Shown here one piece after another: positions 622 to 13,313 of a DNA stretch of 64,000 nucleotides (position 1 is its first letter; each line of letters starts with the position of its first letter). The notes under the pieces are model-generated. The model was not told the origin of the DNA and made no database searches. It saw nothing but the letters and a program-made list of their open reading frames with translations. The DNA comes from Alphaproteobacteria bacterium (GTDB taxonomy: Bacteria; Pseudomonadota; Alphaproteobacteria; GCA-2731375): positions 320,001-384,000 of the forward strand of contig CBDDPY010000002.1 of assembly GCA_965232515.1 (NCBI GenBank). The letters are read 5' to 3'. The position numbers were made by a program, and so were the translations under genes.

Positions 622-630
622 GCAAAGGCT

Positions 631-707
631 GCCCTCATCCTCCCACGCGACTGCCGTCGCGCGGATCCCTCCCTCTCCCGCAAGCGGGAGAGGGTTGGGG
701 TGAGGGC
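631..707. repeat. Intergenic palindromic (REP/RPE-like) element between convergent genes
   Basis: Outer arms GCCCTCATCC...GGGGTGAGGGC enclose hairpins CGCGAC-TGCC-GTCGCG and CCCTCTCCCGC-AA-GCGGGAGAGGG, the form of a common alphaproteobacterial short repeat. May also act as a terminator. Confidence 0.75.
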
Positions 708-714
708 TGGTTTG

Positions 715-2169
715 TTAGTCGTATCCCGGCGGCGCCACGAACCCGCCAATCTCTTGCGCCAGCAGGCGGCTGAACTCGATTGCCGTGCGGTCGTGCAGAT
801 GCGGTGCGATGGCCTGTGCGCCAACCGGCAAGCCGGACGCCGTCAAACCGGCGGGGCTGACGGTCGACGGCAGGTAGACCACGCCGCTGATGCCGGCCCA
901 GAACAGCTGGTCCGTCGTCGGCACCGGATGGCCGTTGACGTCAATCGTCCGGTCGTGCCGCTCGCCTTCCTGGTCGTGCGGCCAGGCGGCCGACGCCGCC
1001 GCCGGGCAGAGCAGGATGTCCCAGTCCTCGAAGAACCCGGCCCAGCTTATCCGCATCTGCGTCCGCTCGTTGTGGAGCGGCAGCCAGTCCCTGTGCCGCA
1101 GCGTGTTGCCGCGCGACATGCGGGCGAGATAGGACGTGTCGTCGGCGCTGGTTTCCTCGGCGATCTGCAGCGACCGTGCGTAGACCTCCGGCGACATCCG
1201 GCCGGAGGTCGCGGCCCGCAGCAACAGCACGTAAACTTCATGCGCCCGCCGCGTATCGATGTCGGGGTGCGCGGTATCGCTCACCGTGGCGCCTGCCTTG
1301 GCGAGCGCGTCGGCGACGGCCTGCAGCCGGTCGGCATATTCGCCGTCGACCTCGGAATTCGGATCGCTCAGCTTCACCGCGACCCGGAAGTCCTTCAGCG
1401 TCGTCCGCTTCGGCGCCGGCAGCTCCAGCCGCCAACCATCCGCCTCCAGCGGGTCCGGGCCGGCCATGGCGTCGAGCGCCAGGCCCAAGTCCTCGGCGCT
1501 GCGGGCAAGCGGCCCGATTGCAGAGATATCGGCCGACGTCACGACGCCCGGCAGGGCGTGGCCGCGCGTCGGCAGGATGCCGTAGGTCGGCTTCAGGCCG
1601 AAGACGCCGCAATAATGTGCCGGGTTGCGGATCGAGGCGCCGATATCGCTGCCCGAGTCGATACCGGTCAGGCCGGCCGCCAAGGCGGCCGCCGAGCCGC
1701 CGGACGAGCCGCCCGGTGTCAGTTCGGTATTCCAGGGGTTGTTGGTGGTGCCGTAGATGGCGTTGAAACTCTGCCAGTCGGCGAGGTTGAGCGGCACGTT
1801 GGTCTTCCCGAACAGCACCACGCCCGCGGCCAGCATCCGGTCCACCGACAGGGCGTTCTTCGCCGCGATATTGTCCTTCATCTCCGGGATGCCCCAGGTC
1901 GTCGGCGACCCGGCGACGTCGTAGGATTCCTTGATCGTCATCGGCACGCCGTGCAGCGGACCCCAGATCTCGCCCTTGGCGAGCGCCGCGTCGGCCGCCC
2001 GCGCCCGCGTCCGCGCGTTGTCGACATCCATCCAGATGATGGCGTTCAGCGCCGGGTTATACTGCTCGACCCGACTCAGGTAATGGTCGAGCAGTTCCAG
2101 ACAGCCGATCTCGCGATCCCGGATCATGGCCGCGAGCTCGCTGGCCGATTTGTAGTGAATGGCGCTCAT
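715..2169 (-). CDS. Amidase (amidase-signature family)
   Basis: GPLHGVPMTIKE (catalytic Lys), TPGGSSGGSAAALAAG, GSDIGASIRNPAHYCGVFGLKPT. Confidence 0.95.
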   Translation of the reverse strand: MSAIHYKSASELAAMIRDREIGCLELLDHYLSRVEQYNPALNAIIWMDVDNARTRARAADAALAKGEIWGPLHGVPMTIKESYDVAGSPTTWGIPEMKDNIAAKNALSVDRMLAAGVVLFGKTNVPLNLADWQSFNAIYGTTNNPWNTELTPGGSSGGSAAALAAGLTGIDSGSDIGASIRNPAHYCGVFGLKPTYGILPTRGHALPGVVTSADISAIGPLARSAEDLGLALDAMAGPDPLEADGWRLELPAPKRTTLKDFRVAVKLSDPNSEVDGEYADRLQAVADALAKAGATVSDTAHPDIDTRRAHEVYVLLLRAATSGRMSPEVYARSLQIAEETSADDTSYLARMSRGNTLRHRDWLPLHNERTQMRISWAGFFEDWDILLCPAAASAAWPHDQEGERHDRTIDVNGHPVPTTDQLFWAGISGVVYLPSTVSPAGLTASGLPVGAQAIAPHLHDRTAIEFSRLLAQEIGGFVAPPGYD

Positions 2170-2253
2170 GAAGATTCTTCCTTTCGCTGATCAGCGACGA
2201 TGTTCCCGTGCCGCCGCGCCGAAGGCAAGCGCGCAAGCCATGATCGACCACGC

Positions 2254-3483
2254 ATGAAGGCCGAAACGCAGGCCATGGACGGCGCGGCGACGCATCCGTT
2301 TCGCTGGGCGATGCTGGCCGGCGTCTGGCTGATCTATCTCTGTTTCGGGCTGACCATCGCCGCCATGGCGCCAATGGTCGGCACCGTGACGCAGGAACTG
2401 GGCATCAGCAACTCCGCCATGGGCAGCGTGCTCGGCGCCTGGCCGCTGGTCTATATCTTCTCGGCCATTCCCTGCGGCGCGCTGCTGGACCGCATCGGGC
2501 CGCGCTGGGGACTGCTGCTGGCCGCCGTGATCATGGCCGCGTCCGGCGGCCTGCGCGGGCTCGCCGACGGCCATCTCGATCTATTCCTGGCGACCGCGCT
2601 GTTCGGTCTCGGCGGTCCGTTGATCTCGGTCGGCGCGCCCAAGGTGATTGCGCTCTGGTTCGAGGGCAAGGAGCGGGGGCTGGCCATGGGCATTTACATT
2701 ACCGGTCCGGCGCTCGGCGGCATCGCCGCGCTGTCGCTCACCAACAGCGTGGCCATGCCGGCATTCGGCGGCGACTGGCGGCTGGTGCTGGTGGTCTATG
2801 CCGCCGTGGTGCTGATCAGCGCCGCGGTCTGGCTCGGCATCAGCGCGCATCCGGCCGCCCGCGCCGTCGAGCGCGATCTCGCGGCCGCGCCCAGGCGTTC
2901 GCAATTCGCCGTCTTCGCCGACCTGATTGGTCTGCGCAGCGTGCAGATCATGCTGGTGATGGCGGTCGGCATCTTCTTCTTCAACCACTCGATCAGCAAC
3001 TGGCTGCCCGAGATGTTGCGCAGCGGCGGCATGGATGCGCGCAGCGCCGGCTATTGGGCGTCGGTGTCGGTCGCGGCCGCGATTGTCGGCTCGCTGCTGA
3101 TCCCCCGGCTCGCGGTGCCGTCGCGCCGCCTGATCATCATGTTCCTGCTGGTGCTGAGCGCCGGTGTGGCGACCTTGCTGATCCCACAGCCGCCGGGCGC
3201 CCTGCTGGCCACCGGATTGATCCTGCAGGGCATCACCCGCGGCTCGATGATGACCATCGCCATCCTGATCCTGGTCGAGACGCCCGAGGTTGGCGCCCGC
3301 AATGCCGGTTCGGCCGGCGGGCTGTTCTTTTCGGCCGCCGAGATCGGTGGCGTGCTCGGCCCGCTGACCGTCGGCTATCTTTCCGACGTGACGGGCGGCT
3401 TTGGCGCGGCCCTGCATCTGCTGACCGGCATCTGCGCGGCGCTGATGCTGCTCCTCGCCCTGCTGCGACGGCAGCACGGCTAG
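2254..3483 (+). CDS. MFS transporter (CynX/NimT-like)
   Basis: About 12 hydrophobic segments, motif A GALLDRIGPRW, WFEGKERGLAMG. Start is approximate (ATG 2254 or 2275). Confidence 0.88.
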   Translation: MKAETQAMDGAATHPFRWAMLAGVWLIYLCFGLTIAAMAPMVGTVTQELGISNSAMGSVLGAWPLVYIFSAIPCGALLDRIGPRWGLLLAAVIMAASGGLRGLADGHLDLFLATALFGLGGPLISVGAPKVIALWFEGKERGLAMGIYITGPALGGIAALSLTNSVAMPAFGGDWRLVLVVYAAVVLISAAVWLGISAHPAARAVERDLAAAPRRSQFAVFADLIGLRSVQIMLVMAVGIFFFNHSISNWLPEMLRSGGMDARSAGYWASVSVAAAIVGSLLIPRLAVPSRRLIIMFLLVLSAGVATLLIPQPPGALLATGLILQGITRGSMMTIAILILVETPEVGARNAGSAGGLFFSAAEIGGVLGPLTVGYLSDVTGGFGAALHLLTGICAALMLLLALLRRQHG

Positions 3484-3487
3484 ATCG

Positions 3488-6400
3488 CTACAGGTTGACG
3501 ACTTCGACGAACACGGGCCGCCGGCGGCTGTCCCGCCCGCGGCTGTCGGTCAGATGCTCCTCGTATTCGGCGATCAACAGGCGGTAGCGGTTCTTCGTCG
3601 CCGGCCGATCCGGCAGCGTGATGCTGCCCTGCCAGATGCTCGGCGGCCGGATCACGTCGAAGATCACCGGATCGCGCAGCACCGCCTTGAAATCGCCCTT
3701 CGCGACCAGCCGCTCGCCGTCGACCTTGGCGCGTTTGATGGCCGTCGCGGTGGGTTTGCGCCGGCCTGTCTCGGTCACCAGCGAGAGTGTGCCCCGGTCC
3801 CGCGTTGGCCGGATATCGGCGACCTTCTGCCAGCCGAGATCGGTACCGATCGTCTCGTTCATTTTCTCCAGCGTCACCTCGATGACGGTCTGGCGCGCCA
3901 CGGTGCTGTTTTCGCGCGAACCTGTGGACTGGCTGTAGCGGTGGCCGAAGACGCCGATCTTGCGCACCAGCGGATTTCGCCGGTCAGGGGTGACGACGAC
4001 GGACCGGTCCGGCGTCAACTGCATGAACTCGGCCAGCACGATCTGCGACAGGTTCATCCGGTAGACCGAAACCGGGTGATAGCGCGCCAGCGCCAGCCGG
4101 ACGAAGGGGTAATAGACCGTGCCGGGCCGGATCACGATGTCGCAGAAATAGAGATCCCGGTCCGCGTCGTAGCCGACCTCGTGCGGCACCACGTCGAGGT
4201 GCAGATTGCCCTGAGCGGCGTCGGGATGCGGCAACTGCGACGTTGGGAAGGGACCCGGCCGCAATTCCAGCTCTTCCGGCGGCATGAAATCGGGCCGGTA
4301 GGGGCCGAGATCGTCGCGGTCCGCGACGCGCAGCGGGAACCGGTTCGGCCGAGGCGCCGCCGTCTTGATCGTCGCCCCGCCCCAGATCGGATCGGTGCCC
4401 CATTGCGTGACGAAGGGCTTGTACGCGCCGTCGATCGCCGTCGTCGAGGCGTTTTCCGGCGGCAGCACGACGCCCAGCATCTCGCCCCAGCCGGATGTGT
4501 ACCAGGGCCGGTCGAGATAGACGCGCAGACCGCCGCCGCCGCGCCAGCTCGTGCGGCCGCCGCGGCCAATCTTGTCGCGGCTCCAGCCGAAGGTCGGCAC
4601 CACGTAAAGCACTTCCGGCGCCGGTGGCTGCGCGGCGTTCGCGGCCCAGACGGTCTGTTCGTCCGAGACCACCTTGATCGCCGCGTTGTCGGGCACCGCC
4701 TTGATGGCTTCCGGCATGTATTCCCGGAACCGGGTCGTGGCCTCGGCGTGATAGGTGATCCGCCGGTAGCGCGTGTCGCCGAACTCGTGTCGTCCCTGCA
4801 CCGACAGGATACCGCTCTCGGCCTCGGTGCGGCGGATCCGGCGCTCGAACGCATGCCCGGCCATGGCCAGGTTTCGCGGCGAGCCGGCGGCGGGCCGGTC
4901 CTGCGGCTCGTTCCACTGCCCCAGCAGGTCCAGCTTCAGCGTGCTCTTGGCATGGATCGGCGTGCGGAAGGTGGGCCGCGCCCAGGTCGCGTTGGCCTGC
5001 CGCGACACCGTCAGAAGGCTGACATCGGGCGTGACCAGCGGCTTCTGCACGGCATGCACCAGTGTCAGCGTGCGCCACGGCGTGAACATCCAGTGCTGGC
5101 CGCGCTCGATGCGCGCGCGCAACGTATCCACCTGATCCGGCGTCAACCCGGCGGTAGCCCATTCCCACAGGCCCATCTGTTCCAGCGCGCCGGCCGGCAG
5201 CAGGCAGCTCAGCCGCAGCTTCGCCACCTCCGCCTTCGGCAGCGGCACGTTCAGCGTGCGCGTGCCGGCGTCGTAGCCCGCTGTCGCCCCGTCCTGCTCG
5301 AAGATATGGATCTTGAAGGGCAGGGCGTCCGGCCAGGGCGAGGCGGCATCGACGAACAGCGCCGGGATCAGGTCGTTCGGGTCCTGGCCTGGCAGATCAA
5401 AGATTCGCGCCACGGCGGCCTCGGCGAACGGATCGGCCAGATACGGCAGGCCGCTCGTTTCCGGCAGCACGGCATAGGTCACCGGCACCAACGGCGATGC
5501 CGGCGTCGGGCCTGGCGTCATGAAGTCGACCGCTTCCAGCACGCCGTCGCGCGTCGACAGCAGTTGGAAGCTCGCCGGATCGAGCTTGCCGCCGGTATCC
5601 AGCATGCTGTGTTGAATAATCTGCGACTGCTTGATGTTGTTCGGCAGGGCCAACCGATCGGCCTGTTCGGCCGCCGGAATGCTGTTGTCGGCCTCGGTCG
5701 CGTTATAGCTGCGGATCGCGACGATGGACATGGACTCGCCCGGCCCCGGCTCCGTCACCGGCGGTCCGTCCTTGATCAGCGCCAGCGCCGGCGCTTCCAC
5801 CGGTTCGAACCGCAGATAGCGCTCGGGATTGCTGGCGGTGTTGGGGGTGCCGATCTCGTCCTCGGTGAAGGGCAGGGAATTGCCGGCCAGATCGACGATG
5901 CGCGCCCGCAGCCGATAGTCCCGGCCGAACCTGAGCGACGGCAGAGAACCGGGATGCGCCTCGAAATTCGCTTCCAGGCCGATGCCGTCCGGCGCCTGGT
6001 TGTCCAGGCTCTTCGGCTGGTCCTCGGGATCGATGGTCAGGCCCGGCATCGGCGCCGACAGGCTCCAGCCGCTCCAGGTGAAGACGCCCTCGTGCAGCTT
6101 GACGATGTCGTCGTTGACGCCGTCCTCGGGCGTGGTGGTGGCGCCCAGACGGACCATGCCCTCTTCGTCCGACGTCTGCAGCAGATCGCTGGTGCGGGTC
6201 AGGCGATAGGCGCCGTCGCGCCGGCACAGGGACTGCCACTGCCCGGTCGTCTTGTCGTGAATGTCGATGCGGAAGCCGCGGATCAGGTCCTCGGCATAGA
6301 CCAGCACATCCTGGTTGCTGTTGGCCTGGTTCTGGAAATCGGCGGCGTTCTGGATCGCCGTTTCCAGCGCGCCGCCGCGGCCCTCCTCGGCCAGTGTCAG

Positions 6401-7582
6401 GCCCGATGTGCGGAGGCTCGGCGCGCCGTCACGGCGAACCTGGTCCTTCTCCTCCTCGGTCGTATTGTCCGACAGCGGCAGGGTGCGCAACGACGCGCCG
6501 AAGCCCAGAGACTTCATCACCATGCCGTCGACATCGACCTGCAACAGCCGGAAGTTGTCGTCGGCCAGCCGCAGCATGCGGCCTTCAATGGGCGTGCTGG
6601 CATTGCGCGGCCGCGGTTCGAAACCGTCCGGCGTCAGGCGCGTGCGCGTGAACGGCAGGATATCCGGATCGGCGACGACGCCGGCGCCCGTGTCGCTCGC
6701 CGGCGCCCAATCGACCTTGACCGACAGCCAATGCTCCGTCGGGCCGGCTGGCAGGGCGCGGCGCGGCACCGTCAGGTCGACCACCAGGCCCAGCAGCCGC
6801 AGCAGCACCGGATACTGGTTCATGGCCGAGACGATCTGGTGGAAGTCGATCAGGTCCTTGAAGTCTTCCGGCTTCGGCATGGCGACCTGCTTGAAGGTCG
6901 ACCATTTTGCGTCTTCCCGCGGGTCGTCCGGACCCTTGTTCTGATAGCTGCTCTGCGCCGGCAGCGACAACGGGGTGTGATAGGCCGAGAACTTCGTCAG
7001 CGGTTCGAACAAGGGTCGGATCGAGGCGAAATTGGACCCCGGGAAGTCCTCCTTGTCGCGCAGGGAGTCGAAATAGCGAAACCCGAACGGCCGTTGCTGT
7101 TTGTGCTCGGTCTGGCCGCGGAAATTGGTGAAGTCCCTGATTTCGCCCAGCAATTGGTTCAGATCGCGTGTCGGCGGCAGCTCGTCATCGGCGGTCTGCA
7201 ACAGGTTGACGTAGAGGTCCTGAAAGGCGTCGTGCAGCTTTGCCAACGGATAGGACACGACCTTGGCGTCCGTCAGGTCCTCGAAATCGTAGGGCCGCAC
7301 GAAGGTCTCGGGCGCGAAGATCGCCCGCCAGACCGTCGGGTCCGGCGCGCTGATTCGGCTGGCCTCGACCGTATCGGCGCCGAAACTGACCTGGAAAGAC
7401 GTGTTCGCCAGCGTTGCCGGCCAGTCCACGAAGTCCGGAAACTGTGCCAGCTCGAACGCGCCGGCCGCCTGGGTCAGCCGCAGGCGCGGCGAGACCAGCA
7501 CGGAGAGCTGCAGCAATTCACCGCCGTCCGACACGCCGTTCGGCAGGCAGGTCCACAGCACTTGTTGGTTCTTGTTTGCCAT
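3488..7582 (-). CDS. Large hypothetical protein (1364 aa), probably multi beta-sandwich
   Basis: Long ORF with normal GC3-biased codons and a GGGGGG-type RBS 10 bp after the upstream stop. FN3/Ig-like strand motifs (LRFGRDYRLRARIVDLAGN, IRPGTVYYPFVRL). No signal peptide or enzyme motif recognised. Confidence 0.85.
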   Translation of the reverse strand: MANKNQQVLWTCLPNGVSDGGELLQLSVLVSPRLRLTQAAGAFELAQFPDFVDWPATLANTSFQVSFGADTVEASRISAPDPTVWRAIFAPETFVRPYDFEDLTDAKVVSYPLAKLHDAFQDLYVNLLQTADDELPPTRDLNQLLGEIRDFTNFRGQTEHKQQRPFGFRYFDSLRDKEDFPGSNFASIRPLFEPLTKFSAYHTPLSLPAQSSYQNKGPDDPREDAKWSTFKQVAMPKPEDFKDLIDFHQIVSAMNQYPVLLRLLGLVVDLTVPRRALPAGPTEHWLSVKVDWAPASDTGAGVVADPDILPFTRTRLTPDGFEPRPRNASTPIEGRMLRLADDNFRLLQVDVDGMVMKSLGFGASLRTLPLSDNTTEEEKDQVRRDGAPSLRTSGLTLAEEGRGGALETAIQNAADFQNQANSNQDVLVYAEDLIRGFRIDIHDKTTGQWQSLCRRDGAYRLTRTSDLLQTSDEEGMVRLGATTTPEDGVNDDIVKLHEGVFTWSGWSLSAPMPGLTIDPEDQPKSLDNQAPDGIGLEANFEAHPGSLPSLRFGRDYRLRARIVDLAGNSLPFTEDEIGTPNTASNPERYLRFEPVEAPALALIKDGPPVTEPGPGESMSIVAIRSYNATEADNSIPAAEQADRLALPNNIKQSQIIQHSMLDTGGKLDPASFQLLSTRDGVLEAVDFMTPGPTPASPLVPVTYAVLPETSGLPYLADPFAEAAVARIFDLPGQDPNDLIPALFVDAASPWPDALPFKIHIFEQDGATAGYDAGTRTLNVPLPKAEVAKLRLSCLLPAGALEQMGLWEWATAGLTPDQVDTLRARIERGQHWMFTPWRTLTLVHAVQKPLVTPDVSLLTVSRQANATWARPTFRTPIHAKSTLKLDLLGQWNEPQDRPAAGSPRNLAMAGHAFERRIRRTEAESGILSVQGRHEFGDTRYRRITYHAEATTRFREYMPEAIKAVPDNAAIKVVSDEQTVWAANAAQPPAPEVLYVVPTFGWSRDKIGRGGRTSWRGGGGLRVYLDRPWYTSGWGEMLGVVLPPENASTTAIDGAYKPFVTQWGTDPIWGGATIKTAAPRPNRFPLRVADRDDLGPYRPDFMPPEELELRPGPFPTSQLPHPDAAQGNLHLDVVPHEVGYDADRDLYFCDIVIRPGTVYYPFVRLALARYHPVSVYRMNLSQIVLAEFMQLTPDRSVVVTPDRRNPLVRKIGVFGHRYSQSTGSRENSTVARQTVIEVTLEKMNETIGTDLGWQKVADIRPTRDRGTLSLVTETGRRKPTATAIKRAKVDGERLVAKGDFKAVLRDPVIFDVIRPPSIWQGSITLPDRPATKNRYRLLIAEYEEHLTDSRGRDSRRRPVFVEVVNL

Positions 7583-7592
7583 GCCGCCCCCC

Positions 7593-10500
7593 TCAGGCGA
7601 ACGCCGCGCAGTAACGCTGCCAGGTGGCGGCGTCCGGAATGAGCTCGATGAAGCGCGGATCGGCGTTCGAGCCGGCGAACTTGCGTTCGACCTTGACCGT
7701 GACCGAGGTGCTGAAGAACAGGATCTCGATCTCGACCTTCAGCGAGGCCTGGCCGCGCAGTTCCGATTTCTGGTTCGCCTTGTGATAGCTGAGCGACAGG
7801 TGGAAGGTCAGCGACACCGAGATCAGGCCCAGCACCGACAGCTCGCCGCCCATCTCGACGAAGCCCTCGAACAGCACGGATTCATCCGGGCCCTGCACCT
7901 GCCAGCGGAAATAGAAGCCGGCCTTCACATAGACGCCGCCCGACGCGACGCCGAGATTGATCGAGATCGAGGCGCCGAACTCGAACTGGGCTTCGACAAG
8001 CTCGACGCCTTCGGATGAGATGCCGAGCCCGAAGAAGCCGCCGCCGCCGAACAGCGAGACCGTCAGGTTGAAGGTGTTGTGCCGTTCGCCGAAGTTGAAC
8101 CGGACGACCGCCTTCTGGCCGGTGAACGGCAGCTCGAACCCGGCGCCCAGCGAGATGTTCTGCAACGCCGCGATGCCGACCGCCACGTCTGGCAGGCTCA
8201 GCGCGTAGCTCGCCTTCAGCCCGGTCGGCGAGATCGCCAGGTCGGGCGGATCGGAGAAGCCGTTGCTGGGGATGAACTTGCGCAGCTCGTTCACGAACTC
8301 CAACGGCCCGCCGAACGTGACCGCGTCGACGGGATCGAGATTGACGTCGACGTCGGGCTTCTTGCCGGCCTCGACCGAGAACACCAGTTCCCGGAACCAG
8401 ATGTGCACGAAGCCGAACAGGTTGATCTTAAAGTTCGTCAGCTTGGCGTCGGTGAAGCTCTGTGGCGCGCCCGGCGTGCCTGTGGGATCGATGGGCGTCA
8501 CCACTTTCGAGGTCAGGTCCAGCACGCTGGTGCCGCCGGCATTGGCGACGAACAGCGGCTTGCCGCCGTCGCCCAGATCGTCGCGGTACCAGCGGTAGCG
8601 CGCTTCGATCTTGTCCGGCAGCTCGAAGGTCTTGAGCTGCGGCACACTGCTGTCGCCGGTGGCGAACGAAATCAGCGAGAACAGATCTCCCAGGCTGACC
8701 CCGCCCAGGATGGTGACGTCCTTCAGCGCCGCCAGCGGGTCGAAGTCGCCGCCCGCGAAGGTGCCGACATCGCCGGCCACCGTGCCGAAGCTGCGCGACA
8801 GGCCGGAGATATCCATGTTCGGCGCGATGAAGCCGCCGACCTTGTCGCTCGTGTTGCCGGCGCCGAATGTCAGGGGCAGGGCGTTCGACAGCTCCAGGAA
8901 GATTTGGCCGGGATTGCTCGGCCCGAATTCGTCGTTCAGATAGCCCTGGAAGAACTTGACGGCGACGGTCTGGCCCTGGCCCAGCAGCCGGTCGAGCGAG
9001 CCGACATTGACGTCGGCTTCGTCGAACGCGGGATAGAATTGCGGCCGGTTGCTCGGCACCGAACCCGCCGGCTTCGCGCCCAGGAACGAGACGGCCTGCG
9101 TCGCGAAGGTGGTGTCGCCCTCGCTGTCGCCGGCGACCTCCTGGCTGGCGTAGCGGACGGTGGCGCCGCCCAAATCGGCCTTGCGCAGATCGGCCTTGGC
9201 GGCAAACGCGTCGGCCACGTCGTCGACGCCGGCCGGGATCTTGTTGACGATCTCCGACATGAAGATCAGCGGCATGGCGAAGGCGATCCGGTTGCCCGCC
9301 TTGTCCGTCGCCAACAGGTCGAACTTGAAGAAGTCGCCGCTGACCCGCGGCCAGAACGCCATGCGGCGTTTGATGCCGTTGTAACTGAGGTGCGGTTCCA
9401 GGCCGCTGGCGCCGACGCCGGGTTGCGCCAGGTTCGGCGTGACCTTGGTCAGCACCTCGACTTTCTCGAAGGGGAAATCGAGCGCGCCGTAAGCCTGCTT
9501 CGGGCCGGGATAGGTTTTCACCGGCTCGCGCACGACGATGAAGTAGCGCTGCCGCAGATAGGCCGCCCGGCCGGCGTTCTGCGGCATGTTTTGGAACTTG
9601 CGCTCGGTCACCTTGACCAGCGAGGCGGCGTGGCCGAAGGGATAGAGGAACCCGGCATAGATCACACGGACGTAGTAGTCGCGGGCCATGGCCGCCCGGT
9701 GCGTCCAAGATTCCAGATCGACCGCTTCCGGCCGGATGTTCCAATTGCCCTCGCTGTCGAGCCAGCCGCCGAGCGTGCTCAGCATCAGGCGTTTGGCCTG
9801 CGTCGGCTTCGGCGTGTACGCCGTGTTGCCGCCGGTCGGATTCGCCAGGTCCTGGCCCCAGTCGGCCGTCAACTGCACCAGCATCTTGCGGTCGAGTTGG
9901 GTCAGCGACATGCGGAACGGCACCTGCCCGTCGCTGGGATTGGGGTTCGGATAGTCGGGCGACCAGATTGCCCGCAGCATCGGCCGCGCCGGCCCGTCCT
10001 CGATCACCTCGCCGTCGTCCTTGCGGCCGAGCCGCGTGTGCCACAGCTCGGTGCGGTTCGCGTGCGCGACCGGCAGGTCGCTGTGCGTAAAGCCCGCCGG
10101 CTGGATCGGCGATTGGATCAGGCGATAGGGCAACTCGATCGCGGTGACGTGCTTCGGCGGCTCGTGCGGTGTCAGGATCAGCGGCAGCAGCGGCACGACG
10201 GACAGGTCGATGGCGTCGACCTCGAAACGGCCCGCCGTGACCTCGGTTGCCACGCGGCTGGCCACCTCAAGCTCGAGCAGCGACCGCGCACGGCTTTTAT
10301 CGGTATCGTCGAGACCACCCGGCAGGCCACGCAGGCCGGCAGACAGCTCCCGTTCGACAAGCGTGTTGATCGTCTTCGCATCGATGGCGCCCCGACCGGC
10401 CGAGAGTTGCTTCACGACGGCGTCGGCAACCCGGCCGCCGGCGCGGGTCATCAGTGTGCCGAGCTCCGCCGCGTCCGACGTCGTCAGGTCGCTGCGGATC

Positions 10501-11114
10501 TTTTCGAATGCCGGTTGCAGGAATGTCGACGATGCGACGCTCAGCAGGCTCTCGATCCGGAATCGTCGGCCGCTGTCGTCGGAGAAACCGGGCGGCAATG
10601 GTGCGGCCGTCCAGTCCAGGCTCAGCGGCCAGGTGCGGCAGGCGGCCAGCAGCGCGTCCAGCGTATAGGGGACCTCGCTCACCTGCATCGGCATAACGAC
10701 GACCAGCCGGCTGCGGCCGGCCATGCGCGTCTTCGCCAGCGCCGGTGGCGTCGGCAGGTTCTCCGACGGCTCGTCCGGCAGATCCGTATTGCCGACTTCA
10801 GGCGCTTCTTCCAGGAAGGCTTCGTCGGCAATGGCCTGCGGCGGAAACTCGACAATCAGCCGGGATGGACGCGACGGGTTCTTGCGCACCAGCTTCGGCG
10901 GGCCCGACGTGTCCAGGTCCATATTGTTGAAGATGAAGTCCAGCACCAGCAGGTCGTCGGCGCGGACGATGCGCTTGCGAAACTCCTGCGGGGTGACGAA
11001 GACGTCGCTGAAATCGAACAGCGTACTGCGGTCGAGGATCGGTGTGATGCGGCGGGCCGAAATCGTACGACCACCGCGCCGCATGGAAACGACCACACGC
11101 CTGGAATCCGCCAT
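7593..11114 (-). CDS. Large hypothetical protein (1173 aa) with Gly/aromatic amphipathic beta-strand C-terminus (DUF6603-like in character)
   Basis: Long ORF, AGGGGGG upstream of ATG. C-terminal strand array FNLTVSLFGGGGFFGLGI, FEFGASISINLGVASGGVYVKAGFYF, GELSVLGLISVSLTFHLSLSY, GQASLKVEIEILFFSTSVTVKVERKF. Confidence 0.85.
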   Translation of the reverse strand: MADSRRVVVSMRRGGRTISARRITPILDRSTLFDFSDVFVTPQEFRKRIVRADDLLVLDFIFNNMDLDTSGPPKLVRKNPSRPSRLIVEFPPQAIADEAFLEEAPEVGNTDLPDEPSENLPTPPALAKTRMAGRSRLVVVMPMQVSEVPYTLDALLAACRTWPLSLDWTAAPLPPGFSDDSGRRFRIESLLSVASSTFLQPAFEKIRSDLTTSDAAELGTLMTRAGGRVADAVVKQLSAGRGAIDAKTINTLVERELSAGLRGLPGGLDDTDKSRARSLLELEVASRVATEVTAGRFEVDAIDLSVVPLLPLILTPHEPPKHVTAIELPYRLIQSPIQPAGFTHSDLPVAHANRTELWHTRLGRKDDGEVIEDGPARPMLRAIWSPDYPNPNPSDGQVPFRMSLTQLDRKMLVQLTADWGQDLANPTGGNTAYTPKPTQAKRLMLSTLGGWLDSEGNWNIRPEAVDLESWTHRAAMARDYYVRVIYAGFLYPFGHAASLVKVTERKFQNMPQNAGRAAYLRQRYFIVVREPVKTYPGPKQAYGALDFPFEKVEVLTKVTPNLAQPGVGASGLEPHLSYNGIKRRMAFWPRVSGDFFKFDLLATDKAGNRIAFAMPLIFMSEIVNKIPAGVDDVADAFAAKADLRKADLGGATVRYASQEVAGDSEGDTTFATQAVSFLGAKPAGSVPSNRPQFYPAFDEADVNVGSLDRLLGQGQTVAVKFFQGYLNDEFGPSNPGQIFLELSNALPLTFGAGNTSDKVGGFIAPNMDISGLSRSFGTVAGDVGTFAGGDFDPLAALKDVTILGGVSLGDLFSLISFATGDSSVPQLKTFELPDKIEARYRWYRDDLGDGGKPLFVANAGGTSVLDLTSKVVTPIDPTGTPGAPQSFTDAKLTNFKINLFGFVHIWFRELVFSVEAGKKPDVDVNLDPVDAVTFGGPLEFVNELRKFIPSNGFSDPPDLAISPTGLKASYALSLPDVAVGIAALQNISLGAGFELPFTGQKAVVRFNFGERHNTFNLTVSLFGGGGFFGLGISSEGVELVEAQFEFGASISINLGVASGGVYVKAGFYFRWQVQGPDESVLFEGFVEMGGELSVLGLISVSLTFHLSLSYHKANQKSELRGQASLKVEIEILFFSTSVTVKVERKFAGSNADPRFIELIPDAATWQRYCAAFA

Positions 11115-11263
11115 TACGCGCCCCCCTGTTGTTGTCGTTGGTCGTTCGGCAGGACCTAGACGAGGGAAAAAATCCCACCAAACGACACTAAAAGCCTAGC
11201 GCGGGGTGCGTTTCAGGGCCGAGGGACCATTCTGTGACCGCCATCAAGGGCGGCCGGCGGTGG

Positions 11264-12265
11264 TCAGCCCGTGCGGATAAATTTCTGGAAGGCGTGGCAG
11301 GTCAGCGGCGCGAAATGATCGATCGCACCCGATGCCTTTACCACTTCGCCGACATAAAGATCGCCGCGCGAGTCCGCCCAGATACCGTGCGGCGCGATGA
11401 AGTTGCCCGGCAGCACCGGGTTGTAGCCGCCGAACCGCGTCTGGATGTTGCCGTCCAGATCGCAGATCGTCACGCGCGCGATCGGCTCGTGTCCGATCGG
11501 CGGGCAATGCATCATGCAGAAGTGCGGCCGGTCCGTCGGCACCGGCGTCGACCAGCCCAGCTCGGCGATATAGAGGTTCTCCTGCTCGTCGATGAACAGG
11601 TCGTCTGGCCGGCTGACCCAGTCCCAGGTCGTGATCAGCGCGCCGTCGGCCGAGAAGATCTGGATGCGTGAATTCTCGCGGTCGGCCACGAAGACCCGGT
11701 TCGACCGGTCGACGGCGATGGCGTGCGGCAGGTTGAACTCGCCCGGACCGCTGCCCGGCTGGCCCCAGGACGCCAGCAACTGCCCGTCGGCTGAAAACCG
11801 GTGCACGCGCGCGTTGCCGTAGCCGTCGGCGATGAACATCTCGCCGTTGGCGCCGGTCGCGACGTTCGTCACCATGTTGAACGGGCCCGACGAATACTGC
11901 ACCGGCGAGACGCCTTCCTTGAAACCGGTGTTGGCGGGCTCGTTCGGCTCGCCCAGCGTCATCAGCAATTCGCCGTCGGTGGTGAACTTGCGCACCGTGT
12001 GGTCGAAATTGTCGGCGCAATAGATGTTGTCGTCGCGGTCGATGAAGATGCCGTGCGCGTTGGTGAAAATGTCCTCGCCCCAGGCATTGAGGAACTGGCC
12101 TTCCTTGTCGAATACGATGACCGGATGGTCGCCGCGGTTGAACACATAGACCCGGTCCTGCGAGTCGACCGCGACGCCGGCCACTTCCACGAACGACCAG
12201 CCCTCGGGCAGCTGCTCCCAGCCCTCCAGTACCTCGTATTCCAGCCTGTGCTCGCCCCACGCCAT
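11264..12265 (-). CDS. NHL-repeat beta-propeller protein, peptidyl-alpha-hydroxyglycine alpha-amidating lyase (PAL)-like
   Basis: ATG 12265 follows RBS GGGAGG. NHL repeats (GVAVDSQDRVYV, GEFNLPHAIAVD). PAL-type motifs ADGYGNARV and ADRENSRIQ. Confidence 0.88.
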   Translation of the reverse strand: MAWGEHRLEYEVLEGWEQLPEGWSFVEVAGVAVDSQDRVYVFNRGDHPVIVFDKEGQFLNAWGEDIFTNAHGIFIDRDDNIYCADNFDHTVRKFTTDGELLMTLGEPNEPANTGFKEGVSPVQYSSGPFNMVTNVATGANGEMFIADGYGNARVHRFSADGQLLASWGQPGSGPGEFNLPHAIAVDRSNRVFVADRENSRIQIFSADGALITTWDWVSRPDDLFIDEQENLYIAELGWSTPVPTDRPHFCMMHCPPIGHEPIARVTICDLDGNIQTRFGGYNPVLPGNFIAPHGIWADSRGDLYVGEVVKASGAIDHFAPLTCHAFQKFIRTG

Positions 12266-12300
12266 GGTTCGTCCCTCCCGTTCGGTCGCGGTTATTGTTG

Positions 12301-13188
12301 TTACGCCACCTGCACCTCGGTCACGCCGGCGTCCACGTCCGACACCGTGGTGCGATGCATCACGCGGCGGTGTTGTGAATTCCAGGGCTTGCCGCGGTGC
12401 ATGACGCTGCGGTTGTCCCAGATCACCAGGTCGCCGGCGCGCCATTTGTGGCTGTAGACGAAGCGGTCCTGCACGCACCATTCGTTGATCCGCCGCAGCA
12501 ACGCCCGGCTCTTGTCGATGTCCCAACCCAGGATGTGCGAAGCGTGGCTGCCGACATAGAAGCTCCTGCGGCCCGTCACCGGATGCGTGCGGATCAGCTT
12601 CTGCCGCACCGGCGGCATGGCGCGCTTCTCGTCGTCGCTAAAAATGTCGCCGACGATCAGGCTGCGGGAATAGACGATCGAATGCTCGCAGATGCAGTTG
12701 TCCAGATCCGCCTTGGCGATGCCGTCGGTCTCGTCGGGCCAGGCGTCATAGGCGGCGCGCGCGTCGGCGAACTCGGTCTCGCCGCCCTCGGGCGGCACCT
12801 CGCGGCCCGACAGGATCGAATACATCGCCGGCACCGGCTTGAACGAGCTGTCGATATGCCAGAGCTGGTTGCCCTTCATGTAGGTCGCGTGCGCGTCGTC
12901 GGCGGCCAGCAGCTTGTCGCCGTCGCCCACGTTCGAAAGGCGCGTTACCTGGCCGTGCACGCCGCCATACTGGTCGCGCGGCAGCGGCACCTCCAGCGGC
13001 CCGAAGCGCTCGGTGAAGTCGACCTGCTGCTGGTCGCTCAGGCGCTGGTCGCGGAACAGCAGCACGGCGTGCTCCGCCGCGGCCCGCGCGATCGCATCGA
13101 ATGTGGCGTCGTTGAGCGGCCGGCTCAGATCGATGCCGCCGATCTCGGCGGCGAAGACGGGTGTCAGTCTGGTTTGCTCGATCGTCAT
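12301..13188 (-). CDS. TauD/TfdA family Fe(II)/2-oxoglutarate dioxygenase (TfdA/SdpA-like)
   Basis: FAAEIGGIDL, NQLWHIDSSF (HxD), GGETEFAD, WRAGDLVIWDNRSVMHRG. Confidence 0.93.
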   Translation of the reverse strand: MTIEQTRLTPVFAAEIGGIDLSRPLNDATFDAIARAAAEHAVLLFRDQRLSDQQQVDFTERFGPLEVPLPRDQYGGVHGQVTRLSNVGDGDKLLAADDAHATYMKGNQLWHIDSSFKPVPAMYSILSGREVPPEGGETEFADARAAYDAWPDETDGIAKADLDNCICEHSIVYSRSLIVGDIFSDDEKRAMPPVRQKLIRTHPVTGRRSFYVGSHASHILGWDIDKSRALLRRINEWCVQDRFVYSHKWRAGDLVIWDNRSVMHRGKPWNSQHRRVMHRTTVSDVDAGVTEVQVA

Positions 13189-13313
13189 TTGCTTTCTTTG
13201 TCCGGTTATCGGCGCCCCGGGGTAAGGCCACGGTCTCGGCAATAAGGATAACCATTCACGCACGGCCGTTATAGTGTCGGCGGACGCTTCGAATTTGTGA
13301 GGTTGAATTCCGG

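Follow-up and report, generated by a model that had tools for sequence, protein, structure and literature searches.

Multi-component toxins built from giant subunits, such as the Tc/ABC toxin complexes and the binary toxins, and the hitchhiker complexes of the pathway for twin-arginine translocation (Tat), which are cofactor-bearing redox enzymes of modest size, are among the described systems closest to the gene pair reported here. Export of signal-less proteins together with a signal-bearing partner is an established Tat mechanism (PMC4273604, PMC10924467). The pair occupies positions 3488 to 11114 of the window, by which we mean the whole 64,000-nucleotide stretch of alphaproteobacterial DNA that was analysed (assembly GCA_965232515.1, contig CBDDPY010000002.1, positions 320,001 to 384,000 of the forward strand), and its two genes, A and B, each encode a giant protein. 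Our favoured reading, to which we assign a probability of about 0.4, is that A and B would form a mobile, obligate complex that is Tat-exported in some lineages and possibly acts on the envelope or a membrane. Like Tat hitchhikers such as Escherichia coli PaoABC, the pair combines one partner with a twin-arginine signal (A, at 17 of 62 loci) with a linked partner that has none (B); unlike them, A and B carry no cofactor motif, would amount to about 280 kDa or more and lack a signal in most lineages, including that of the window. The likeness to giant-subunit toxins is one of analogy and lies in two genes side by side that are horizontally mobile and plasmid-borne (Bacillus cereus-group megaplasmids) and appear to need no further linked genes. 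Unlike the Tc/ABC toxins, however, neither protein showed a TcA/TcB/TcC, RHS, toxin or pore-forming Pfam domain (E≤1; E≤10 for 28 B relatives), and immunity-like small exported proteins follow only the four giant plasmid variants described below.

According to the list of open reading frames (ORFs), both genes lie on the minus strand, start with ATG and are arranged with A ahead of B, separated by 10 nt. A first-pass annotation, made from the sequence alone, had described two co-oriented ORFs 10 bp apart, each behind a run of G resembling a ribosome-binding site. Both points were borne out (11114..7593 and 7582..3488; GGGGGG at 11126-11121 before A and GGGGGGCGGC before B), and the strand and the order of the genes can now be added. 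The features of the locus are as follows.

3488..7582, minus strand: gene B (P0002), 1364 amino acids (aa), from a second family without a Pfam model (ORF, translation, G+C at third codon positions 0.88)
7583..7592, minus strand: A/B junction GGGGGGCGGC, 10 nt, a ribosome-binding-site-like run straight after the TGA of A
7593..11114, minus strand: gene A (P0001), 1173 aa, from a large family without a Pfam model (ORF, translation, G+C at third codon positions 0.89)
11115..11263, minus strand: intergenic region upstream of A, 149 bp from the stop of an NHL-propeller gene to the ATG of A; the presumed promoter site
11121..11126, minus strand: GGGGGG run, 6 nt ahead of the ATG of A, ribosome-binding-site-like, read from the sequence

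Read in the direction of transcription, the junction is TGA-GGGGGGCGGC-ATG. A and B are real coding sequence, with G+C contents at codon positions 1/2/3 of 0.64/0.45/0.89 and 0.66/0.47/0.88, respectively, like those of the neighbouring genes, and presumably form one bicistronic operon. A listed plus-strand ORF (3554..7642, 1362 aa), with a translation rich in Arg and Ala, was rejected as an antisense artefact.

The distribution of B was determined with a pattern scan of 185,579 species genomes, one genome per species, which detected relatives in 556 of them (~0.3%). For locus comparisons, we used the best 80 loci, picked through B alone. These bore the labels of Alpha-, Gamma- and Betaproteobacteria, Acidobacteriota, Gemmatimonadota, Planctomycetota, Cyanobacteria, Actinomycetota, Chloroflexota, Armatimonadota, Nitrospirota, Myxococcota, Desulfobacterota and several candidate phyla, in agreement with the first-pass mention of similar tandem pairs in scattered phyla. 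An A relative stood directly upstream of B on the same strand at 74 of the 80 loci; the other six (L023, L035, L037, L045, L050 and L072) open within B, at the edge of a contig, and lie outside the adjacency count, so that the figure is 74 of 74 testable loci, from more than 12 phyla. When 301 Acidobacteriota genomes were searched separately with A and B profiles, the same seven were positive for both, with A and B adjacent in all seven, and 294 had neither. Among plasmid records with B, A adjoined it in 17 of 18. Pairwise identities of A and of B were closely correlated (r = 0.95; 2016 pairs, 64 loci). The strict co-occurrence that had been proposed as a check on the pair was thus found in adjacency, in presence and absence, and in divergence.

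The start codon of B lies no more than 13 residues ahead of its WTxLPNG motif at 71 of 74 loci, usually at −1 to +42 nt past the stop of A, and this tight arrangement suggests coupled translation. A conserved third gene was ruled out by clustering of the flanking ORFs and by Pfam counts of the neighbours: with A, B and antisense ORFs set aside, the commonest flanking family was a generic ABC ATPase (11 of 81 sources), and the 112 nearest neighbours of 68 loci matched 142 Pfam families, none of which occurred in more than two neighbours. Together, these results show that A and B are inherited, lost and transferred only together and are the sole two parts of a self-contained module. This module is under purifying selection, and its reading frames are intact and full length across phyla, which argues for a selected function.

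We also found that the module is horizontally mobile. The genome of the window contains a single copy of the pair, and B was absent from all 60 related genomes, 32 of which belong to the same family, including one of the same genus. In this same-genus genome (G001), the flanks are kept at 87-91% identity but lie 403 bp apart, against 7784 bp in the window (3482-11265): on its contig C633, the match to window positions 695-3481 stops 403 bp before the match to 11266-12366, and the intervening 403 bp showed no similarity to window positions 3200-11500. The segment defined by this comparison is the following.

3482..11265, no strand: presence/absence segment, present in the window and missing from the same-genus genome G001

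Since the flanks in G001 are only 403 bp apart and the filler between them is unrelated, the cassette and its 149-bp upstream region form a discrete presence/absence unit. The borders of the segment in the window have no repeat of at least 9 nt in common, whether direct or inverted. The NHL-propeller gene lies outside the cassette, since it is kept in relatives without A and B. This empty site in a genome of the same genus agrees with the patchy phylogeny that had been named as a second check. Elsewhere, the pair is carried by plasmids, namely Bacillus cereus-group megaplasmids, plasmids of Rhizobium and Streptomyces and the megaplasmid of Cupriavidus metallidurans CH34. The A profile picked up no relative among the viral contigs of IMG/VR, and B had no match in 50,697 phage records. 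Two pairs of loci in differently labelled metagenome-assembled genomes (MAGs) share A and B across these labels: L040 and L048, from MAGs labelled Synechococcus and Acidobacteriota, are 94% identical, and L070 and L071, from a MAG labelled Silvibacterium and an alphaproteobacterial MAG, are 75% identical. Locus L025 bears a Bifidobacterium label, yet its G+C content is 69%. These cases may reflect either recent transfer or mis-binning.

A few copies appeared to be damaged. The A gene on contig C44 of genome G365 has an in-frame TGA, and among plasmid copies (loci L091 and L093), A of a Rhizobium ruizarguesonis plasmid and a B-like gene of an Agrobacterium vitis plasmid are each annotated as two genes.

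The first-pass annotation had called both proteins uncharacterised, and our searches of four profile libraries and of solved structures led to the same conclusion. Neither A nor B matched Pfam-A, NCBIfam, PADLOC or PHROGs at E≤1, and searches of PDB sequences, with the single proteins in phmmer or with profiles of 79 A and 28 B relatives, returned noise only (E 0.4-1.5). No recurring family emerged when the 28 B relatives were scanned singly against Pfam at E≤10, and Pfam identified next to nothing in the long (30) and giant (18) forms of A, in five remote B-like proteins or in five small proteins encoded downstream. In the ESM Atlas, both proteins fell among clusters of 'hypothetical protein' (0.97-0.98), with weak leads to one cluster each of DUF6603 (0.78), beta-propeller (0.81) and PG_binding_1 (0.76) proteins. 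Family A comprised 4512 cluster representatives at E≤1e-3 and 2292 at E≤1e-30. Family B had at least 1031 relatives among 8000 scored candidates, the best 120 of which were all full length and either unnamed or 'hypothetical'. The two proteins were rejected as paralogues of each other (hhalign probability 0.3%), and no internal repeats were found in either. Literature searches found no paper for three RefSeq accessions of the Bacillus pair and its neighbour, and a search on tatA and plasmids gave no relevant title among those listed. Judged by these comparisons, A and B are two undescribed protein families, and nothing curated or published that we found explains them.

An alignment of A relatives divides protein A into the following parts, all on the minus strand.

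10980..11114, minus strand: A residues 1-45, N-terminal tail, variable and with the lowest conservation within A; without an export signal in the window
10620..10979, minus strand: A residues 46-165, conserved N-module (RxDDLL...FPPQxIAxEAF...SRL), from the alignment consensus and conservation profile
10200..10619, minus strand: A residues 166-305, gap-rich linker (conservation 0.15-0.27, gap fraction 0.31-0.46)
8625..10199, minus strand: A residues 306-830, conserved core (TAIExPYRL, ELWHTRLG, GRDxYVRVxYxGFLxPFGHxASLVKVTERKF)
7596..8417, minus strand: A residues 900-1173, Gly-rich module at the C-terminus, with the highest conservation within A (LFGGGGFF, EFGA, GVASGG, VLFFSxSV, ending in AFA)

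All seven peptide blocks that the first-pass annotation had quoted as typical of conserved families were present in the translations. The core of A contains many nearly invariant His, Glu, Arg, Asp and Trp residues in the alignment, and residues of the same five types, invariant or nearly so, are likewise spread over the whole of B. Conservation of B is even along its length, except at residues 151-200 and 1251-1300, and B always begins a few residues before its invariant W-T-x-L-P-N-G motif. In the last ~150 residues of A, the translation shows, at ~1040-1145, several runs of 10-13 residues in which hydrophobic and polar residues strictly alternate, with Gly-rich turns between them. These runs may be amphipathic beta-strands, either of a sandwich face or of a membrane-inserting sheet, although no pore-forming-toxin Pfam family matched A. 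Longer A homologs carry 350-600 extra residues at the N-terminus, and giant ones (2054-3287 aa) have an insertion of 500-900 aa after position ~750 of the hidden Markov model (HMM), near the end of the core and before the C-terminal module. The idea that the giant A-like proteins are A-B fusions was rejected, as 29 of them (2054-3287 aa) hold no B region and have the insertion and N-terminal extensions instead. Fusions of A homologs to other domains were rare (Peptidase_S8 in 1 of 30, an Rv2525c-like glycoside-hydrolase-like domain in 1 of 30 and CarboxypepD_reg in 1 of 18).

Next to the conserved parts of A, its N-terminal tail differed between lineages. We scored a Tat signal as an S/T-R-R-x-F/L-L motif and a hydrophobic region (12-residue hydropathy threshold 1.2) followed by AxA. 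Among 62 complete A ORFs, 31 tails were plain, 17 had a Tat signal, 11 were Lys-rich and histone-like and 3 consisted of Pro/aromatic repeats. The same rule was passed by 53 of 150 A family representatives, and the Pfam model TAT_signal matched 1 of 18 giant A forms. The window's A fails the rule: its sole RR match is SRRVVV at residue 4, and the best following 12-residue hydropathy is 0.27. No clear transmembrane helix was seen in either protein of the window, the highest 19-residue Kyte-Doolittle means being 1.69 (A) and 1.49 (B), and the earlier statement that signal peptides and transmembrane helices are lacking therefore stands. B has no signal, since its start no more than 13 residues before the conserved motif (71 of 74 loci) leaves no space for one, and none was present at any locus read, including those at which A has a Tat signal. 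Judging from these translations, the tail of A behaves like an exchangeable address.

Four distant giant variants, on plasmids of Rhizobiaceae and Ruegeria, repeated this asymmetry: in all four, an A-like protein of 2278-3312 aa bears a Tat signal and a B-like protein of 1263-1900 aa does not. Small proteins with Sec signals are encoded downstream of all four. In one of them, L092 (Sinorhizobium meliloti plasmid pC, 7113-21804), where the A-like protein has 3052 aa and a Tat signal, tatA lies 50 bp past the B-like gene (1766 aa), and on this conjugative plasmid the giant pair and tatA together are bordered by VirB-type transfer genes on one side and by traA/mobC on the other. At the canonical locus L064, whose genome has three tatA paralogues, one of these stands ~270 bp upstream of a Tat-type A.

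Another variant, on a Ruegeria plasmid (L094), is flanked by a gene of the zinc-dependent phospholipase C family and a gene for an M35 metallo-endopeptidase. Three small genes follow it, two encoding proteins with Sec-type signals and one a membrane-protein-like product.

Since the weak leads included DUF6603 (PF20248), we compared A with sequences of this domain family collected from actinobacterial genomes and a protein collection, using hhalign against 6 and then 43 of them. DUF6603 proteins are giant and uncharacterised and occur mostly in Actinomycetota; no paper mentioning them was found. Over 97-148 columns, a weak alignment was obtained between the C-terminal module of A and the C-terminal half of DUF6603 (probability 34-64%, E 6e-5 to 4e-4, 30-33% identity), and a reversed control gave a probability of 0.2% and E 0.32. 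The two families share a similar size (~1100-1550 aa) and the motifs GGFFAI/GYFAVT, EFGA/QFGA and VLFFSxSV/LLFFxIxV. However, the remainder of A does not align convincingly with DUF6603, an HMM search between the families returned nothing, and the Pfam DUF6603 model matched neither A at E≤1 nor any protein of the window's genome. DUF6603 proteins also differ from A in that no Tat signal was seen in 15 N-termini read and many carry Kelch propellers. At four of four loci (L096, L097, L098 and L099, in the actinobacterial genomes G417, G371 and G389), DUF6603 genes encoding 922-1185 aa lie within ~3 kb of a gene for a second giant protein without a Pfam match (1309-1870 aa). These partners form a family of their own and were rejected as relatives of B (probability 0.06%). 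DUF6603 and its partner may thus constitute a second system of paired giant dark proteins.

Taking these observations together, we consider it probable that A and B form an obligate heteromeric complex of ~280 kDa per A+B pair that is assembled in the cytoplasm. In the mechanism that we propose, A and B would fold and join in the cytoplasm; in the quarter to a third of lineages in which A bears a Tat signal, the Tat pathway would carry the folded complex out, B being the 'hitchhiker'. The complex of the window would stay cytoplasmic unless released otherwise, because neither protein has a signal there. In a speculative extension of this scheme, the complex would act on the envelope or a membrane, as a binary toxin, a pore-like weapon or a protection device; A would supply a variable N-terminal 'address' and, as the inserting or contacting part, a Gly-rich amphipathic DUF6603-like beta-module, and the evenly conserved B would be the working core. 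The clues to such an action are indirect and consist of the Tat forms, the rare fusions, the small exported proteins after the giant variants and the predicted strand pattern at the C-terminus. The membrane-targeting toxin or pore, one of three functions put forward in the first-pass annotation, is possible in light of the Tat signals of homologs, the putative Gly-rich C-terminal beta-strands of A and the small exported proteins after the giant plasmid variants. Tentatively, and with similarly low confidence, the pair could be envisaged as a new kind of giant two-protein machine, pre-assembled in the cytoplasm, carried by Tat in many lineages with B riding on the signal of A and among the largest Tat cargoes, that acts on a membrane or the envelope through a new Gly-rich beta-module distantly shared with DUF6603.

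Several observations weigh against the favoured reading. No signal is present in 31 of the 62 complete A ORFs, the window's own among them, and the Lys-rich tails (11 of 62) suggest a polyanion-binding location in the cytoplasm rather than export. We know of no Tat cargo as large as the A+B pair (~280 kDa), and tatA, considered as a regular neighbour, was rejected because it was seen at a single canonical locus among the 80 and beside a single giant variant among the 4. Clustering of the flanks revealed no conserved immunity-like gene at the canonical loci, and no toxin, pore or enzyme domain was detected in A or B. Both proteins are acidic (net charge −19 for A and −28 for B) and soluble, with no clear membrane segment. 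The similarity to DUF6603 is weak (probability 34-64%), and DUF6603 is itself without an assigned function. Finally, an enzyme would account just as well for the many invariant His, Asp, Glu, Arg and Trp residues.

These residues, across the core of A and all of B, are the starting point for an unlikely but possible alternative, namely that A and B are the two subunits of an enzyme, such as a hydrolase or lyase working on polymer or cell-wall material, that is cytoplasmic in some lineages and periplasmic via Tat in others, a split found in some enzyme families. The solubility and acidity of both proteins, the even conservation of B along its length and the rare fusions of A to a peptidase or a glycoside-hydrolase-like domain are consistent with it, and Tat typically exports folded, often multi-subunit enzymes with which signal-less subunits can hitchhike (PMC4273604, PMC10924467). 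An enzyme is harder to reconcile with the absence of any recognised cofactor or catalytic motif, with a linked transporter, regulator or pathway gene found at none of the 68 loci, and with a very patchy, plasmid-borne distribution from which a same-genus relative is missing, and it leaves the Lys-rich and Pro/aromatic tails unexplained. Under a different explanation that we consider quite improbable, B would be a dedicated cytoplasmic maturation, modification or folding factor required by A before action or export rather than its stable partner. B lacks a signal at every locus read, even beside a signal-bearing A, the coupling and co-evolution of the two are strict, and their tight junction suggests coupled translation, all of which would suit such a factor; on the other hand, B, with 1364 aa conserved throughout, is far bigger than the Tat chaperones and toxin-activating enzymes known to us, and no enzyme domain was found in it.

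An anti-phage or anti-plasmid defence system of two giant proteins is likewise improbable. The first-pass annotation had offered a defence module as one option, and the pair does resemble the two-gene anti-phage systems of PADLOC in its cassette layout, patchy spread and horizontal transfer, being a self-contained two-gene cassette in ~0.3% of species genomes that is mobile and carried by plasmids; some plasmid copies stand beside HNH endonucleases, a helicase, a DNA methylase and nuclease, or dpdE/dpdF, and the Lys-rich tails could bind DNA. It differs from these systems in that no PADLOC-DB 2.0 model matched A or B (E≤1), no nucleoside triphosphatase, nuclease or other effector domain was found, and the neighbours of the 68 loci were not enriched in defence genes: at most 3 of the 112 nearest matched any one defence model (kinase-type PD-T4-6), and their Pfam families were housekeeping ones. 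The predicted Tat export of A (17 of 62 loci) would also take it out of the cytoplasm, to a site at which most known defence systems are not active. On present evidence, defence ranks last among the earlier options, but it keeps some probability because restriction-type genes surround a few plasmid copies. A third such option, a lipid-transfer conduit, found no backing: unlike AsmA/TamB-like lipid-transfer proteins, A and B gave no AsmA/DUF490-type match in Pfam or NCBIfam and have no N-terminal hydrophobic segment that could serve as an anchor. We regard it as highly improbable that A and B are structural relics of a selfish mobile element, virus-like or other. They are mobile, patchy and giant and lack cellular annotation, but no relatives were found in IMG/VR (A profile) or the 50,697 phage records (B), no PHROG matched, no integrase, transposase or replication gene was among the listed neighbour families, the borders in the window are without repeats, and intact full-length frames across phyla argue for a selected function.

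The pair thus consists of two families of proteins of more than 1100 aa with thousands of clusters, present in more than a dozen phyla and on several plasmid types, for which no curated domain, solved relative or paper was found. Because it always comprises two genes in a fixed order with no other partner, its function should be tractable by expressing two genes. If Tat-dependent hitchhiking is true, the pair would probe the size limits of folded-protein export and add a new class of complexes, exported or releasable, to those of soil and marine bacteria. If the envelope reading is true, it would define a new superfamily of binary, mobile devices for attack or protection extending from Bacillus and Streptomyces to marine Alphaproteobacteria. 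Any function found would annotate at least 556 species genomes and would probably give a first handle on the DUF6603 proteins.

In the window, the cassette is flanked by genes for an enoyl-CoA hydratase, an amidase, an MFS transporter, an NHL propeller, TauD, TRAP transporter subunits and aconitase subunits, and its earlier description as inserted among unrelated catabolic genes was fair with respect to the amidase, MFS, NHL, TauD, TRAP and aconitase neighbours. The MFS transporter gene is convergent to B and ends 4 bp from it. The NHL-repeat gene (11264-12265, minus strand) encodes a six-bladed propeller of ~333 aa from an internal Met and immediately follows the TauD gene, into which the listed ORF (11264..12526) runs too far. 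A promoter scan found no sigma-70 consensus in the 149-bp region ahead of A, no Rfam match was present across window positions 3000-12500, and terminator-like sites at the locus were no commoner than in shuffled sequence.

Raw polyA RNA runs (X21 and X24) yielded 0 reads, an outcome with no bearing on expression. Contigs of two RNA libraries labelled as another organism (X5 and X18) span A, B and both flanks (window positions 2200-13300) at 90-99% identity and a similar low depth of 2-9. Since such libraries may contain DNA, these contigs are a mere hint of transcription in a related strain. They carry the same cassette and flanks, and therefore a closely related strain lives with that organism.

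Between the enoyl-CoA hydratase and amidase genes (window positions 628-713), we noted an element of ~62-80 bp that matches at least 20 contigs of the same-genus genome G001 at 86-95% identity and looks like a dispersed repeat resembling repetitive extragenic palindromic (REP) sequences or miniature inverted-repeat transposable elements (MITEs).

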